The notes under the pieces were generated by a model, which made no database searches, was not told where the DNA came from, and saw nothing but the letters and a program-made list of their open reading frames with translations. From NCBI RefSeq assembly GCF_013315695.1, contig NZ_CP054354.1: DNA of 64,000 nucleotides; one strand, 5' to 3'. A program made the position numbers and the translations under genes. Each line of letters starts with the position of its first letter. Position 1 is the first letter of the stretch. This stretch comes from Escherichia coli. GTDB taxonomy: Bacteria; Pseudomonadota; Gammaproteobacteria; Enterobacterales; Enterobacteriaceae. Positions 17,006 through 26,042 of the stretch are shown here, in pieces.

Positions 17006-17026
17006 TAATCCCGGAAACGTACTTAA

Positions 17027-17056
17027 GGGCAGAGGGTCACCGCCCTCTGCCCTTTA
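17027..17056 (+). terminator. rho-independent terminator
   Basis: Perfect 10-bp stem GGGCAGAGGG / CCCTCTGCCC, loop TCACCG, then TTT. Confidence 0.65.
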
Positions 17057-17245
17057 ATAATCTACGGACAGATTACTTTCTGTACTTCCAGAGCCTGTTT
17101 CTGTGAGTCAAACATGAGCTGGTTTTTACCGACTACACCCAAGTAAATATATTCGATATCTCCCATTTGCCGTATTTTCGTAAAATTCAACAGGAAATAT
17201 TCAACGGGAGTGAGAGAACTGCTGTCCGGGGAGGAGGTACAGACG

Positions 17246-17277
17246 CAAAAAAACCGACTGGTGAGGCCGGTTTTTTT
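17246..17277. terminator. bidirectional terminator-like hairpin (copy 2)
   Basis: aaaaaaaccgactggtgaggccggttttttt. Confidence 0.5.
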
Positions 17278-17593
17278 GCGATTCCGGATCGAAGTTGGTA
17301 GCCCTGACCGGAAGATAACTGCCTATAACTGACTATGAAATAATACGGCTGAAATAATATTTCTGCAAGCACAGTATAAGTATATACTCGGTGTGTCAGC
17401 TTTGAGGCACGTTCTTTCCGGCATATCGTTCACCGGGATGAACAGGTTGCAAGTCCTGGCCAAAACATCAGGTGGTGCTGGTTTTGGTGCTCTGGCCGGA
17501 GAAGAACTGTCTATAACTGACACTATAGAAAACGTGGCGACAGGCAATGTAAGGGCAAACCACGGTGTTCTTTCTCCATTGATGGAGAAGCGG

Positions 17594-20985: not shown

Positions 20986-21138
20986 ATGCCACAACGAACG
21001 TTTTTAATGATGTTAATCGTCGTCTGTGTGACGATACTGTGTTTTGTCTGGATGGTGAGGGATTCGCTTTGCGGATTTCGTATCGAGCAGGGAAATACGG
21101 TGCTTGTGGCAACGTTAGCCTACGAAGTTAAACGTTAA
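20986..21138 (+). CDS. hok: Hok/Gef-family type I toxin (PndA/Hok-like), 50 aa
   Basis: Not in ORF track (<60 aa). MPQRTFLMMLIVVCVTILCFVWMVRDSLCGFRIEQGNTVLVATLAYEVKR matches the Hok/PndA pattern; overlapped in another frame by ORF 20838..21131 (mok-like). Confidence 0.7.
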   Translation: MPQRTFLMMLIVVCVTILCFVWMVRDSLCGFRIEQGNTVLVATLAYEVKR

Positions 21139-21275: not shown

Positions 21276-22862
21276 TCAATTATGACAGTCGCTCTCATTT
21301 AGTTGTCTCTGGTTAGATGTATTATTAGATATTTTCGGGGTAATTCGATAAAAGTTATCCACTTCAGCACCAGACTGAATGATATATGCAATAAGATCTA
21401 AACGATGAATCTCGTATCGTGTACGTAACTCCATCATTTCACGCCATGCTAAAATCCTTGATGTTTTCAGTTCAGCCTCTATAAGTTTCCATGTGTTTGT
21501 TGAGATGGCATGTTCTTCCAGCTGACGTAACGAGAACCTATCACTAATGACCAACCATCCCCATCCTCGAGTATGTGCCCATTTGCGACCTGCATTACTT
21601 TTTATTCTCGTGAGACTCAAGGTCATTCGGTCTGTTGGCTTCACTTCCATAAGTAGGCACCGACCATCAACTGTCGCAATGAGTAAATCTGGATAGTATT
21701 TTTTTGATTTGTTTTTAAAACAATATGGAATAGAAAATGGTTGTTCTTGATAGAAAAGAACCTGATCGCAACATTCTAATAGATTCATTATTTTAAACTC
21801 AAGCCCTGATTCGTACTGGACTGTACGACCTAATTTTTGAGAGTAAAAGAATCCAGATATGTCAGTATCATTAACCGCTCTCTGTGAACATAGCTGTTCT
21901 ACGGGGGGAGGAGGTGCGATATATTTTGGCCAATGTGTATTGTCTAGCCATTTACTGAATATGAACTCAACTCTTTCTTTCTTGATTCGGGCTCTTTCCT
22001 GAGCGCGAGCGTGTGCTAATTCTGCTCTTCGTTCACGTAACCTCTGCTTTTGTAATTGTGATATTAATGAGAGCGAACTTTTTATTTCATCTCGTCTTGC
22101 TTTAGGAATGCCTGCGGTAAAAATAATGAATTTGGCGGCTAAGTCAGAGGATGTAACGAAATCCCGATGAACAATACGATAAATCCATACTGCTATATCA
22201 TATGGTGAATTACCTATTGAGTTAATAAGGGCTTTAAGGCAAGCTCCAGGTGTCCCTTCATAGCGAGATTTAGCAGCTAGTAAGCCAAGGGCTCGTTCCT
22301 GAAGTTGTCTTACCCTTTCACGGGAAATTCCTAATTTGACGGCAATATCTGCCAGAGAATGAGGTGAATCATCTGTGCCGAGTCGCATTAGAAGAATATA
22401 TTGATGTCGTTTATTAGATAAACTTTCGATAGCAGAATGAATTAGCATAATGACATCATGTTCATCGGCTATATAATCTTTAAAATCTGTATTGGGTTGG
22501 CAGAGGGGGAGTGGGGTATTTTGTTTAAAACTATTCTTTTGTATTTCAACTTTATCATGAGCAATTGTTTTTGCAGTGCTCAATGATATTAAATTATTGA
22601 TGATACTATTGTGTTCTTGGCGAGGAATCTTGTTGAAGTAATTGCTGAGATCATTCACCGTGTTTATATCGTTGAACTCAAGAAACTCAGAAGGAAGCAG
22701 GCGTTTGATTGCTCCACGTATTCCCCCGGACGATCGTTGATGTGTTTGAGTAAGTTTTTTTAGCGAGACGCCCTCCGCTATGGATACGAGAAGACGCTGT
22801 AACTCTTCAGTATTCCATGGAGTACCATGTCGTGCTGGAAAATTGCTGCGGGATTCAGACAT
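21276..22862 (-). CDS. sigma-70 region-4-like HTH fused to PD-(D/E)xK (TnsA-like) nuclease motif; unknown function
   Basis: 528 aa; HQYILLMRLGTDDSPHSLADIAVKLGISRERVRQLQERALGLL fits sigma-70 region 4.2; C-terminal YYPDLLIATVDGRCLLMEVKP fits PD...EVK; lies in a visibly AT-rich segment. Confidence 0.55.
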   Translation of the reverse strand: MSESRSNFPARHGTPWNTEELQRLLVSIAEGVSLKKLTQTHQRSSGGIRGAIKRLLPSEFLEFNDINTVNDLSNYFNKIPRQEHNSIINNLISLSTAKTIAHDKVEIQKNSFKQNTPLPLCQPNTDFKDYIADEHDVIMLIHSAIESLSNKRHQYILLMRLGTDDSPHSLADIAVKLGISRERVRQLQERALGLLAAKSRYEGTPGACLKALINSIGNSPYDIAVWIYRIVHRDFVTSSDLAAKFIIFTAGIPKARRDEIKSSLSLISQLQKQRLRERRAELAHARAQERARIKKERVEFIFSKWLDNTHWPKYIAPPPPVEQLCSQRAVNDTDISGFFYSQKLGRTVQYESGLEFKIMNLLECCDQVLFYQEQPFSIPYCFKNKSKKYYPDLLIATVDGRCLLMEVKPTDRMTLSLTRIKSNAGRKWAHTRGWGWLVISDRFSLRQLEEHAISTNTWKLIEAELKTSRILAWREMMELRTRYEIHRLDLIAYIIQSGAEVDNFYRITPKISNNTSNQRQLNESDCHN

Positions 22863-23135
22863 GATTTTATCTTTATGTTTTCTAGGTACTGCCTTGAGTG
22901 TGTGGATATGATAATTATTTGTAATGATATTGTTATCTTTTATAGATAACTGATATGCAGAATTGTATTGATTTTGTCTACAGTGGGCAAGACAGTGCTA
23001 AGAATTTGTGGGGAAAACATAGAGACTCCATGCGGCGTCCTGAGATAGACGGCAGACAGGCATTCTGCCTGAAAAGAAAAAGCCGGTTCAGAGAAAACCG
23101 GCTGACGGATTATCGTCTAACAGTTGATAGCTACC

Positions 23136-23789
23136 TCAAAATACTTCTGCAACAGGAACACCGGCAACTTTTTCCCACTCTTTAACCCGATACCGGATCA
23201 TCTGTGGGAAACGTTCCTTGTACTCATATCCACGTGCAGCCATGGTGTGCATGGTGTTGGCCAGCGTCCTTGCTGAGATGCCGGAGATCTCAAGAGGAAT
23301 CATCGGCAGACTCACATAGGTGGTGTGGATTTCCAGCTTGCCGTCTTCAGCAACCGTGCGGGTAAAGTTGTGAATATCCAGACCAATCACATCCATCACA
23401 TTGTTTGGATAAATACGCACATACAGCATGGTGCCGTTTTTAATGTCGATCCCGAAATAACAACTCTTCGAGAATGACAGTTGCTCATAATCGCTGGTCG
23501 GCGCAAAGGGACTGCTTTCTTTTATCTGCTGAACAACCTGCTGGACTTTCTTTTTCTTCGCTCTGGTTTTCATATATAGCCAGAGTGATGGGAGTATTAA
23601 TAGGAGCCAACTGCCATAAGTATATAGATATGCTTGAATATCTGTTTCTATATATGGTTCTGTAAGCATCATACCGGTAAATCCTAGAGAACATAGTAAT
23701 AAAAAAGGAACACCAAATATAAAATAAGCAGTGCGGATAAGGTAATAATATGCCCACCAGGAAGGATATCTGCTTTTTGTTGTGTTCAT
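23136..23789 (-). CDS. excA: ExcA-like entry-exclusion inner-membrane protein
   Basis: 217 aa; N-terminal TM segments; immediately downstream of traY as in R64; AT-rich. Confidence 0.45.
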   Translation of the reverse strand: MNTTKSRYPSWWAYYYLIRTAYFIFGVPFLLLCSLGFTGMMLTEPYIETDIQAYLYTYGSWLLLILPSLWLYMKTRAKKKKVQQVVQQIKESSPFAPTSDYEQLSFSKSCYFGIDIKNGTMLYVRIYPNNVMDVIGLDIHNFTRTVAEDGKLEIHTTYVSLPMIPLEISGISARTLANTMHTMAARGYEYKERFPQMIRYRVKEWEKVAGVPVAEVF

Positions 23790-23800
23790 AATAAACCTCC

Positions 23801-23841
23801 ATATTCACCTGAATGTATTTTAATCTCTTCAGGTGAATATG
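23801..23841 (-). promoter_or_regulatory. perfect 13-bp inverted repeat between traY and excA
   Basis: ATATTCACCTGAA ... TTCAGGTGAATAT with 15-nt loop, just upstream of the excA RBS. Confidence 0.4.
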
Positions 23842-23876
23842 GCAATGGTGTTTTAGTGGTTTTTCGATATTTTCAT

Positions 23877-26042
23877 TTATTGTTTTATTCCGTCTTTATC
23901 ATCTCTATTAATATTTTTCAGTTTTTCTTCACGAACGCCAGGTGTTCTGCGCATATTGGTATTACCTCCGGCAATAATATCTTTGACTGAAGAAACCATA
24001 TTCCCCAGCATATTAACACCGTCACGTCCGCCCAGAAAATTAATTACATGGTCAGGCAGATAAGCCTGAAGCGCAAAAACGGCTGCAACCAGTGTGGTAC
24101 AGGCGCGGGCATAAATCATCAAAAATCCCGCCATGCTGAACACACCCGTCACAGAGTTTATCTGGACATTCATCAGTGCAGCAGCATACAGCGCATTCAG
24201 GATTGTGCCGCCGGCCACGATGGCGACTGATGCAAAAAAGAACCCGAACACCATCAGCAGCGGTCTGATCATGCTGTCTATCAGGTAGATGTAACCGTAA
24301 GCGGCTCGGCTTCCCCGGTCCTGACTTGTTCCCAGATGGGTGGCGGCCCACAGGGGGCCAGCAGCACATCCAATCAGTACGCTGACTATCCAGTTGCCGA
24401 TGCCGGTCATCCAGAAGATAAACGGGATAAACGGCAGGTAAATGGATAACGAAAAACCGGCACAAAACAGCAAAAACAGCAGGAAGTAGAGTGGTGGTGC
24501 GGATGCTTCCAGAAAAGCCTTTGCGGCGTCAGATAATCCGCTGACGGCATTGACCAGTCGACCAAAAACGGAGTTGCTGCCGGCCGTGGAAAGTACCCTG
24601 ACGGTGGTATAACCCGCCCAGATGGTTTCGGTCGTAACCATGGTGTAATCGCCAATGTTTTTCATTTTTATCAACGGATTTAGTTGATTAGTTGTGGTAC
24701 CTGTACCGCTCAGATAAGTGGCTGTCCAGTTAGTCATTCTTGTTAGGTTAAACCCAATCAATTTTAAGATTGCTGATTGAGGGTCTTGAGTTTTAGATGC
24801 GTGGTATTCACTGGCAGAGGTGGCGGTTCCCAGTGCAGGAGTATACGCTGAGTTCTGCAGCTGTGCCTGGTAAGCCCCCTTGACTTCCTTCAGGAATTCC
24901 GTATCCCCGGCTTCGCCCAGTGACGAGACGCCACTCACTGTAGGAGCACGGTCGGCCAGTTCAGCCAGTCGCTGGTTGGCGGTGGCAAAGGTCTGGTACC
25001 AGGCGCCCAGGGCAACCCAGCCGTAGGTGGTCAGGTAGGATTTCAGCTGCTCCCTGCGCTCAGTTTCTGCGTTATCTGCCGGCAACGCCTTCTGCACCGT
25101 TTCTTCATACCGGTTGGCTGCCTTCTGAATACGGCTTTCAATATCCGGCAGGTTGCCGTTACCCGTGTCGCGCCGGGTCCGGTATGCCGACACAAATTCC
25201 TGCGCCGCGCTGTCCAGGTCACGGAGCATGGTATCCATGGCGGAGCGCTGTGCCGTCAGAACCCCCTGATATTCCGTTTCAATGAAGGGATTGAAAAAAT
25301 GGGCCAGCGCGGACTGCTTGTTACTGCCGTTTCCTTTCACGGAGAGACTCACACTCCCGCAGGTGGCGCTGCCATTTGAGACGGTGACGGTATATCTGCC
25401 ATTCTCTGTCCGTGAGGATTCGCTCATGGGCGGCGTTGATGAACGTGCGGTACGGTTAAAGTCATCGAGGCCCGTATTCATGGCGTGTTTGCACAGTTCC
25501 ATCTCCAGAATTCCCCGTGCTGCCGTGCGGGTGGAGACATGTACTGGCTGTACGGTCATTGAATAGCCTTCAGCAATGTTTTCTGCCGCTGTCTGAACCA
25601 TGATATTGGCGGAACCGATGCCCATGATGGATGCGCCCCACAGCATGACCAGTTGCGCCAGACTCCAGCCGGAAGCGGTGGGCACAATCATCAAAAATCC
25701 ACTCACGACACTGAGTATGCCGACGACGTCCCGTCCGTTGTTAAAGACACTGCCCTGGTGTCCCGTGCGGACAGCATGACGGATACCAATAAACAGAAAC
25801 CAGACTATCCCCATCGTGGCGATAATTGCGTTAAACACCATGAACAGGTTGCCAATGATGGTGTTGCTGCTGGCTGTCAGGGGATTTGTGACCACATCAC
25901 CAAAAATGGTGACCAGTGCCTGGCGCGACAGGTCATCCGGATTGGTGGCGGCACTCACAATGTCCTGATAGGTGACGAAAGCCTGTGCAGGTACGGCAGC
26001 CAGCGCCAGACCTGCACTCAGTGCTCTGGGTATGATTTTCAC
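23877..26042 (-). CDS. traY: TraY-like integral membrane protein
   Basis: 721 aa; multiple TM segments; size and position as R64 TraY. Confidence 0.65.
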   Translation of the reverse strand: MKIIPRALSAGLALAAVPAQAFVTYQDIVSAATNPDDLSRQALVTIFGDVVTNPLTASSNTIIGNLFMVFNAIIATMGIVWFLFIGIRHAVRTGHQGSVFNNGRDVVGILSVVSGFLMIVPTASGWSLAQLVMLWGASIMGIGSANIMVQTAAENIAEGYSMTVQPVHVSTRTAARGILEMELCKHAMNTGLDDFNRTARSSTPPMSESSRTENGRYTVTVSNGSATCGSVSLSVKGNGSNKQSALAHFFNPFIETEYQGVLTAQRSAMDTMLRDLDSAAQEFVSAYRTRRDTGNGNLPDIESRIQKAANRYEETVQKALPADNAETERREQLKSYLTTYGWVALGAWYQTFATANQRLAELADRAPTVSGVSSLGEAGDTEFLKEVKGAYQAQLQNSAYTPALGTATSASEYHASKTQDPQSAILKLIGFNLTRMTNWTATYLSGTGTTTNQLNPLIKMKNIGDYTMVTTETIWAGYTTVRVLSTAGSNSVFGRLVNAVSGLSDAAKAFLEASAPPLYFLLFLLFCAGFSLSIYLPFIPFIFWMTGIGNWIVSVLIGCAAGPLWAATHLGTSQDRGSRAAYGYIYLIDSMIRPLLMVFGFFFASVAIVAGGTILNALYAAALMNVQINSVTGVFSMAGFLMIYARACTTLVAAVFALQAYLPDHVINFLGGRDGVNMLGNMVSSVKDIIAGGNTNMRRTPGVREEKLKNINRDDKDGIKQ

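Follow-up and report, generated by a model that had tools for sequence, protein, structure and literature searches.

This locus raises the question of how the level of an entry exclusion protein is set when its gene lies at the end of a transfer operon that is under tight control, and of what part may be played in this by a long inverted repeat in the short gap before that gene. Entry exclusion decides which related resistance plasmids enter a cell, and the plasmids of the I-complex (IncI1, I-gamma, B/O, K and Z) are major carriers of ESBL and AmpC genes. The window, by which we mean the whole 64-kb stretch of DNA analysed here, belongs to an IncB/O-type I-complex plasmid. The 1.3 kb around the hairpin are 100% identical to the E. 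coli plasmid NZ_CP032260.1 (typed IncI1/B/O, MOBP, MPF_I), and in pCT (NC_014477) the 131 nt around it are identical to the window. The features of the junction, in the order in which a transcript of the minus strand would meet them, are as follows.

23877..26042, minus strand: traY (DotA/TraY family; NCBIfam TIGR04346, E 1.3e-161), the last gene upstream of the hairpin
23846..23876, minus strand: A-rich 31-nt stretch from the traY stop to the -35, variable and indel-rich among relatives, without a predicted terminator
23840..23845, minus strand: -35 TTGCCA of the predicted promoter P_exc; the 5' arm begins with its final three bases, CCA
23828..23842, minus strand: 5' arm CCAUAUUCACCUGAA, coinciding with the promoter spacer (repeat, fold and covariation with the 3' arm)
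23814..23827, minus strand: 14-nt loop GAGAUUAAAAUACA, containing the -10 TAAAAT at 23822-23817
23799..23813, minus strand: 3' arm UUCAGGUGAAUAUGG, with the predicted transcription start inside it (repeat and fold)
23796..23800, minus strand: Shine–Dalgarno sequence GGAGG, whose first two G (23800 and 23799) form the last two stem pairs (sequence)
23136..23789, minus strand: excA, IncI-type entry/surface exclusion protein of 217 aa (NCBIfam NF033891, E 2.7e-85)
23081..23103, minus strand: intrinsic-terminator-like hairpin and T run; 9-pair stem with 5 G-C, 5-nt loop, tail TTTTCTTTTC

The genes traX and traW lie upstream of traY, and in NZ_CP032260.1 the same two flanking genes are annotated as DotA/TraY and excA. 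The traY stop codon, TAA, is at 23879-23877 and 34 nt separate it from the hairpin; the excA ATG, at 23789-23787, comes six nt after the Shine–Dalgarno sequence.

Directly downstream of excA is an ORF of 528 aa (21276-22862, minus strand) that carries an N-terminal TnsA-like endonuclease domain (PF08722, E 5e-12) and also a sigma70 region-4 domain (PF04545, E 4e-9). In the window excA leads straight to this ORF, and the intervening 22863-23135 is without the ~500 bp of extra sequence that follow excA in IncK2/Z relatives (L002, NZ_MT707656.1, locus 763-972), where a small ORF is annotated as a "HEAT repeat domain-containing protein". The IncI1 plasmids have a small ORF at the same position, annotated as a HEAT repeat protein in ColIb-P9 and as Hha in others. 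Further on lies a 50-aa ORF on the plus strand (20986-21138), for which NZ_CP032260.1, the identical plasmid, gives the annotation Hok/Gef family toxin; it presumably belongs to a post-segregational killing locus of the pnd/hok type.

Geometry of the inverted repeat

On the plus strand the repeat between traY and excA reads CCATATTCACCTGAA (23799-23813) and TTCAGGTGAATATGG (23828-23842), 15 bp of perfect complementarity with G-C at 5 of the 15 positions; downstream of the A-rich stretch the excA-sense strand reads TTGCCATATTCACCTGAAGAGATTAAAATACATTCAGGTGAATATGGAGGTTTATTATG. The initial annotation, which had the flanking genes right, described a perfect 13-bp hairpin with a 15-nt loop just upstream of the excA ribosome-binding site. 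The repeat is indeed perfect, with the 13-bp arms being the inner part of the 15 bp; the loop is 14 nt long, an end coordinate was likewise off by one, and the 3' arm does not stop short of the ribosome-binding site but ends within it, taking the first two G of GGAGG. This overlap was overlooked, as was the conserved sigma70 promoter predicted within the hairpin.

The hairpin is the only perfect inverted repeat of at least 15 bp in the 64 kb, and hence the longest, when loops of 3–30 nt are scanned, and none of at least 13 bp was found in 20 dinucleotide-preserving shuffles of the window. As minus-strand RNA the surrounding 121-nt region folds at -23.8 kcal/mol compared with -9.4 ± 2.5 kcal/mol for its shuffles (z = -5.7), and none of 200 shuffles was as stable as the native fold. 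The probability that the hairpin arose by chance is negligible. The next-longest perfect repeats in the window, at 17025-17054 (12 bp) and 17244-17280 (13 bp), look like ordinary bidirectional intrinsic terminators, the latter with an A run on one side and a T run on the other (GCAAAAAAACCGA...TCGGTTTTTTTGC).

Scanning 23000-24500 against Rfam 15 at E values up to 10 brought no curated RNA family near its gathering score; the matches were sub-threshold microRNA precursors (15–18 bits against gathering scores of 70–160) and reflect generic hairpin shape. Nor did a search of the full-text literature find a description of the hairpin or of the nested promoter, an earlier mention in the first exc sequencing papers being possible. 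The exc genes of R144 and R64 were reportedly first sequenced by Hartskeerl et al. in 1986 and by Furuya and Komano in 1994.

Conservation of the pairing and of a predicted promoter

The junction is present at a DNA identity of at least 80% in 464–468 plasmids of PLSDB, mostly from Escherichia and Shigella, and those sampled were typed IncB/O, K2/Z or I-gamma/K1; homologues of ExcA occur on ~2,070 plasmids. Window-type junctions were taken from 20 plasmids, 18 found by DNA search and two (L034 and L035) by tblastn with ExcA. To these were added junctions of ColIb-P9, of one R621a-like and one R64-type plasmid, of one Klebsiella, one Enterobacter and one Pseudomonas plasmid, of two Salmonella plasmids of other replicon types and of eight ExcA variants from public assemblies, together with the outlying junctions of one IncL-like and one Serratia plasmid and seven distant loci from species-representative genomes. 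The arms differ widely between these lineages and are listed here for several of them.

Window: 5' arm CCATATTCACCTGAA, 3' arm TTCAGGTGAATATGG
L014: 5' arm CCATATTCGCCTGGT, 3' arm ACCAGGTGAATATGG (two compensatory pairs, one G.U)
L020: 5' arm CCATAAACACTCA(A)TCG, 3' arm CGATGAGTGTTTATGG
L039: as L020 but with TCA in the 5' arm and TGA in the 3' arm
L037: 5' arm CCATAAGCGCTCAATAA, 3' arm TTATTGAGCGTTTATGG
L040: 5' arm CCATAAACACTT, 3' arm AAGTGTTTATGG
L021 (Klebsiella): 5' arm CAGTAGCACCCAGGT, 3' arm ATCTGGATGTTACTG

The MAFFT alignment of 16 distinct I-complex sequences has no gaps over the hairpin and was thus not fitted to the structure. In these 16 sequences 93.3% of the stem cells form standard pairs, compared with 31–45% when the 3' partners are slid by 1–3 columns, and both-sided compensatory changes are found in 10 of the 15 pairs; a set of 15 sequences that includes ColIb-P9 has them in 11 of 15. 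Neither the covariation nor the pairing was matched in any of 500 shuffles, and RNAalifold independently predicts 14 of the 15 stem pairs. Three pairs show no variation at all, and these are the ones on which the -35 (CCA) and the sequence beside the Shine–Dalgarno (UGG) place a further constraint. The pattern of substitution argues that the arms are maintained as pairing and not as sequence, and that it is the pairing that has been selected. The few non-Watson–Crick cells of the stem, read on the excA-sense strand, comprise 9 G.U and 3 A.C, which are not independent events; they lean towards excA-sense RNA, rather than antisense RNA or a DNA cruciform, as probably the functional strand, and fall short of proof.

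What the hairpin surrounds is a match to a sigma70-type promoter, P_exc, found in a consensus scan, with the -35 TTGCCA at 23845-23840 separated by a 17-nt spacer from the -10 TAAAAT at 23822-23817 (10 of 12 matches to the consensus). The 5' arm (23842-23828) consists of the last three bases of the -35 and most of the spacer, and the start predicted from the position of the -10, at about 23810-23809, falls within the 3' arm, which spans from about -3 relative to that start to the first two G of the Shine–Dalgarno sequence. The scan match by itself is not above chance, four such promoters being found locally against 4.2 expected, and the support for P_exc comes from its conservation. Whilst the arms vary, there is no change in the columns TTG (-35) and TTA.A.T (-10). 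In the different lineages the -35 takes the forms TTGCCA, TTGCAC, TTGTCA and TAGACA, and the -10 the forms TAAAAT, TAGAAT, TAAACT and TACAAT, the TA...T pattern being kept in all. The spacer is exactly 17 nt long in every lineage with a strong hairpin, though its sequence changes, and window-type sequences are nearly invariant from the -35 to the ATG. Variation that keeps TTG... and TA...T appears promoter-like and not that of an RNA loop motif. Transcript levels point the same way: RNA-seq of an IncI1/ST3 plasmid found ~90% of the plasmid genes at or below the level of repA and excAB at 5–16 times that level (bioRxiv 10.1101/2023.02.03.527097), so that, with most plasmid genes low and excAB RNA high, excA must have a strong promoter of its own.

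We rejected two other arrangements of the promoter. One lying upstream, which would put both arms into the native mRNA, would have to be sited between the traY stop and the -35, a stretch that is indel-rich and has no conserved hexamers. A single-strand DNA promoter of the Frpo type does not agree with a -10 that is in the loop and a -35 of which half is outside the stem. In an alignment of 19 I-complex sequences, the indels that close relatives show within the junction are confined to the A-rich stretch (23846-23876), with an 18-nt deletion in L016–L018, and 7–8 nt in L012 and L013. This stretch may be an UP-element region or else an unconstrained spacer.

The range of the strong hairpin appears, on these comparisons, to be the enterobacterial I-complex and its close kin, with a promoter in the gap being the more general feature. 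In the Enterobacter-type relatives L022, L042 and L043 the promoter is kept, with a -10 near consensus (TATAAT in L042 and L043, TATAAC or TAACAT in L022), and the hairpin is absent or a weak A/U stem at most. An ExcA-profile scan of species-representative genomes gave seven distant loci (Dickeya and Pseudomonas), none with the hairpin–promoter arrangement; they bear on the range and not on the covariation. Two further plasmids have a -10 of TATAAT: L044 (NZ_CP089429.1, K. pneumoniae, locus 477-541; probably IncL-like), with an ExcA ~27% identical and an extended -10 TGATATAAT, and L045 (NZ_CP018918.1, Serratia, locus 488-553), with CTGACA, 17 nt and TATAAT in the traY–excA gap. Their small repeats are in other registers (5 bp flanking the -10 and a stem joining the -35 to the -10), and we do not count them as comparable hairpins.

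Natural variation within the range is also seen. L036 (Logan SRR31796971 contig, locus 338-400) is a deletion variant of the R621a-like junction from which the inner 3' arm is gone; its remaining stem is 9 bp long (-7 kcal/mol) and the -10 directly abuts the remaining arm. In L041 the promoter reads TAGACA, 17 nt, TAAAAT. Here too the -10 is in the loop of a hairpin, AGCUCCU.../...GGGAGCU, the stem of which stops 5 nt short of the Shine–Dalgarno sequence; a role that is purely structural or centred on the promoter suits this lineage just as well as masking of the Shine–Dalgarno does.

Ribosome-binding site and candidate roles of the hairpin

The base of the stem adjoins or covers the Shine–Dalgarno sequence in almost every lineage. 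Two of the five Shine–Dalgarno bases are within the stem in the window, and 1–2 in the L020, L023 and L021 types. All five are within it in ColIb-P9 and L038, where the stem is in another register, CCUCCCC(A)UCG / CGAGGGGAGG, and pairs the whole of the Shine–Dalgarno (CCUCCCC/GGGGAGG, an anti-SD). Opening the ribosome-binding site, computed from SD-3 to AUG+12, costs read-through RNA 3–12 kcal/mol more than it costs promoter-initiated RNA in 10 of 10 hairpin lineages. The respective values are 15.2 and 10.6 kcal/mol in the window, 16.8 and 7.0 in ColIb-P9, and 20.0 and 8.0 in the R64 type. The 10.6 kcal/mol of the promoter-initiated RNA of the window (23730-23810, minus strand) exceeds that of most relatives (3–9 kcal/mol) even without the 5' arm, which suggests that the 5' UTR pairs partly with the early coding region.

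We propose that two signals overlap in the traY–excA gap, a sigma70 promoter that serves excA and a 15-bp RNA hairpin. The mRNA initiated at P_exc would begin within the 3' arm and so could not form the hairpin, leaving its ribosome-binding site free. Only RNA that starts upstream of 23842 holds both arms, and the hairpin needs read-through from traY, at the end of the tra operon; such read-through is plausible since a terminator scan called none in the gap between the two genes. The read-through RNA would fold at about -22 kcal/mol, and its hairpin would occupy the Shine–Dalgarno and standby region, such that excA would be poorly translated from it. The output of ExcA would in this way be set by its own constitutive promoter and be insulated from the activity of the tra operon. 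Both the read-through and the P_exc transcripts are likely to end at the terminator-like hairpin at 23103-23081, 33 nt past the excA stop. We put the probability of this reading, a mask of the ribosome-binding site specific to read-through RNA combined with a constitutive promoter, at roughly 45%; of its elements we show the hairpin, its covariation, the conserved promoter consensus and the computed difference in accessibility, and we infer the selective value, the start site and the block to translation. Should transcription of the tra operon be weak under normal conditions, little ExcA would come from read-through in any case, and the selective benefit would be in doubt.

Were this model to hold, it would explain how a promoter of its own sets the ExcA level even though the gene closes a tightly controlled transfer operon. 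It would also be a case of overlapping codes, in which a promoter spacer and a 5' UTR have co-evolved as the two arms of a stem through several exchanges of the excA/traY specificity module. A practical use is in locating the excA promoter and the right start codon, as some database entries place the start inside the hairpin. The start given for pSH146_87 (L020, NC_019131.1, locus 471-500) is inside the hairpin, eight codons upstream of an ATG that has a Shine–Dalgarno sequence before it, and the ATG called on an S. bongori contig (L040, locus 401) is only 2 nt past GGAGG; both are probably mis-called.

The same parts could be arranged as an active switch. On derepression of tra, polymerases arriving from traY would occlude P_exc and yield only hairpin-silenced excA mRNA, lowering ExcA specifically in donors. 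We regard this as distinctly improbable. If true, it could avoid self-interference between ExcA and TraY or transiently relax exclusion, and donor state and entry exclusion would be linked in a way not described before, encoded in a promoter with a spacer that doubles as the anti-SD arm.

Other roles for the hairpin have to be weighed against a read-through-specific mask. The first is that it acts on the tra mRNA, either as a barrier to 3'–5' exonucleases that protects the traY-proximal message once it has been cleaved or as an RNase III-type processing site that splits off the excA segment, in which case the overlap with the promoter and the Shine–Dalgarno sequence would merely reflect the shortness of the intergenic space. 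Stabilising hairpins between cistrons are well known, REP in malE–malF being an example. That the last tra gene is followed directly by a stable stem that covaries on the sense strand is what such a role would lead one to expect, as is the stem of L041, which does not touch the Shine–Dalgarno. However, the stem is never placed in the stretch from the traY stop to the -35, even though variation is tolerated in it. The close association of the stem base with the Shine–Dalgarno in nearly all lineages, to the point of an exact anti-SD in ColIb-P9, also counts against it, and for RNase III a stem of 12–17 bp is short. We consider a role on the tra mRNA unlikely.

A structure at the level of the DNA, be it a cruciform or an opened-promoter structure centred on the -10, could modulate P_exc by extrusion under negative supercoiling. 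There is reportedly a synthetic precedent, from Horwitz and Loeb in 1988, for a -10 region regulated by a cruciform. The loop holds the -10 in every lineage with a strong repeat, including L041 with no Shine–Dalgarno involvement, and the centre of the repeat is A/T-rich. Extrusion would nevertheless be disfavoured by loops of 11–21 nt, and the 3' arm tracks the Shine–Dalgarno sequence, which a DNA model does not require. The G.T positions that are tolerated count against a cruciform because both strands must pair; there are DNA mismatches at 4 of 15 positions in L021 and at one each in L014, L018, L033 and L037. The excess of G.U over A.C cells described above is, for its part, too small to exclude a DNA-level structure. 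On balance this seems to us rather improbable.

It is very improbable that the hairpin is an intrinsic terminator or attenuator that ends tra transcription before excA. It is stable, lies at the end of an operon and is followed in the window by AGG and then UUUAUUAU. The U-rich run begins only 3 nt past the stem, though, and ColIb-P9, L021, L023 and L041 have no U-rich sequence following it; the terminator scan made no call on a hairpin with a 14-nt loop and 5 G-C pairs of 15, and the canonical terminator is the one located after excA. The initial annotation had proposed a structure in the minus-strand RNA by which expression of the exclusion gene is uncoupled from the tra operon, naming an attenuator, a processing site or a stability element as its possible forms. 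The general idea fits the compensatory changes and the G.U cells that favour the excA-sense strand; the attenuator is contradicted by the long loop, the A/U-rich stem, the lack of an abutting U tract and the tails of the relatives, and a processing or stability role is a candidate in whose favour nothing specific speaks.

Finally, the perfect 15-bp repeat flanking the -10 might be taken as a palindromic operator for a dimeric repressor straddling P_exc, which is highly unlikely, as the arm sequences are wholly different among ColIb-P9, R64-type and R621a-type plasmids, whose tra gene sets are otherwise ~99% identical (PMC8004404), so that a shared regulator could not recognise them all; the stem moreover admits G.U positions, and it is its pairing that is conserved.

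Comparison with known systems

The class of mechanism to which the read-through-specific mask would belong is known already, and the element at excA appears not to have been remarked on in the literature searched. The likeness to Rho-independent terminators goes as far as a stable hairpin in an intergenic region of an operon; the excA hairpin differs in having no adjacent U tract, a long loop, an A/U-rich stem and an overlap with the promoter and the Shine–Dalgarno sequence. In F-like plasmids traT and traS are expressed independently of the PY operon controlled by traJ. These exclusion genes and excA thus share a position in or at the tra operon and a constitutive promoter of their own (a predicted one for excA), whilst the proteins are unrelated, and, as far as we know, no covarying hairpin has been described around an F-like exclusion promoter.

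Closer parallels are found among insertion sequences. The tnpA gene of IS200 is protected by 5' stem-loops that act against impinging transcription and occlude the ribosome-binding site (PMC3196728; PMC4513863). There, two separate structures are involved, a terminator and a ribosome-binding-site hairpin that the native mRNA contains as well, whereas excA has a single hairpin, which would be expected to be absent from the native mRNA.

For IS50 (Tn5), Schulz and Reznikoff are said to have described in 1991 read-through transcripts that sequester the ribosome-binding site as in IS10. In IS10 (Tn10) itself, known for "fold-back inhibition", according to the account in PMC13181058, which cites Davis, Simons and Kleckner (1985, Cell 43:379), translation signals are sequestered in transcripts from outside promoters. 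These two elements and the arrangement proposed for excA have in common a promoter of their own downstream of a 5' complementary segment, a native mRNA that lacks this segment, a pairing of it with the translation-initiation region in read-through RNA, and insulation from upstream transcription. They differ in that excA is an entry exclusion gene at the end of a conjugation operon and not a transposase gene at the end of an element, and in that its translational block is a predicted one. At excA, moreover, the 5' arm doubles as the spacer of the putative promoter and the -10 lies in the loop.
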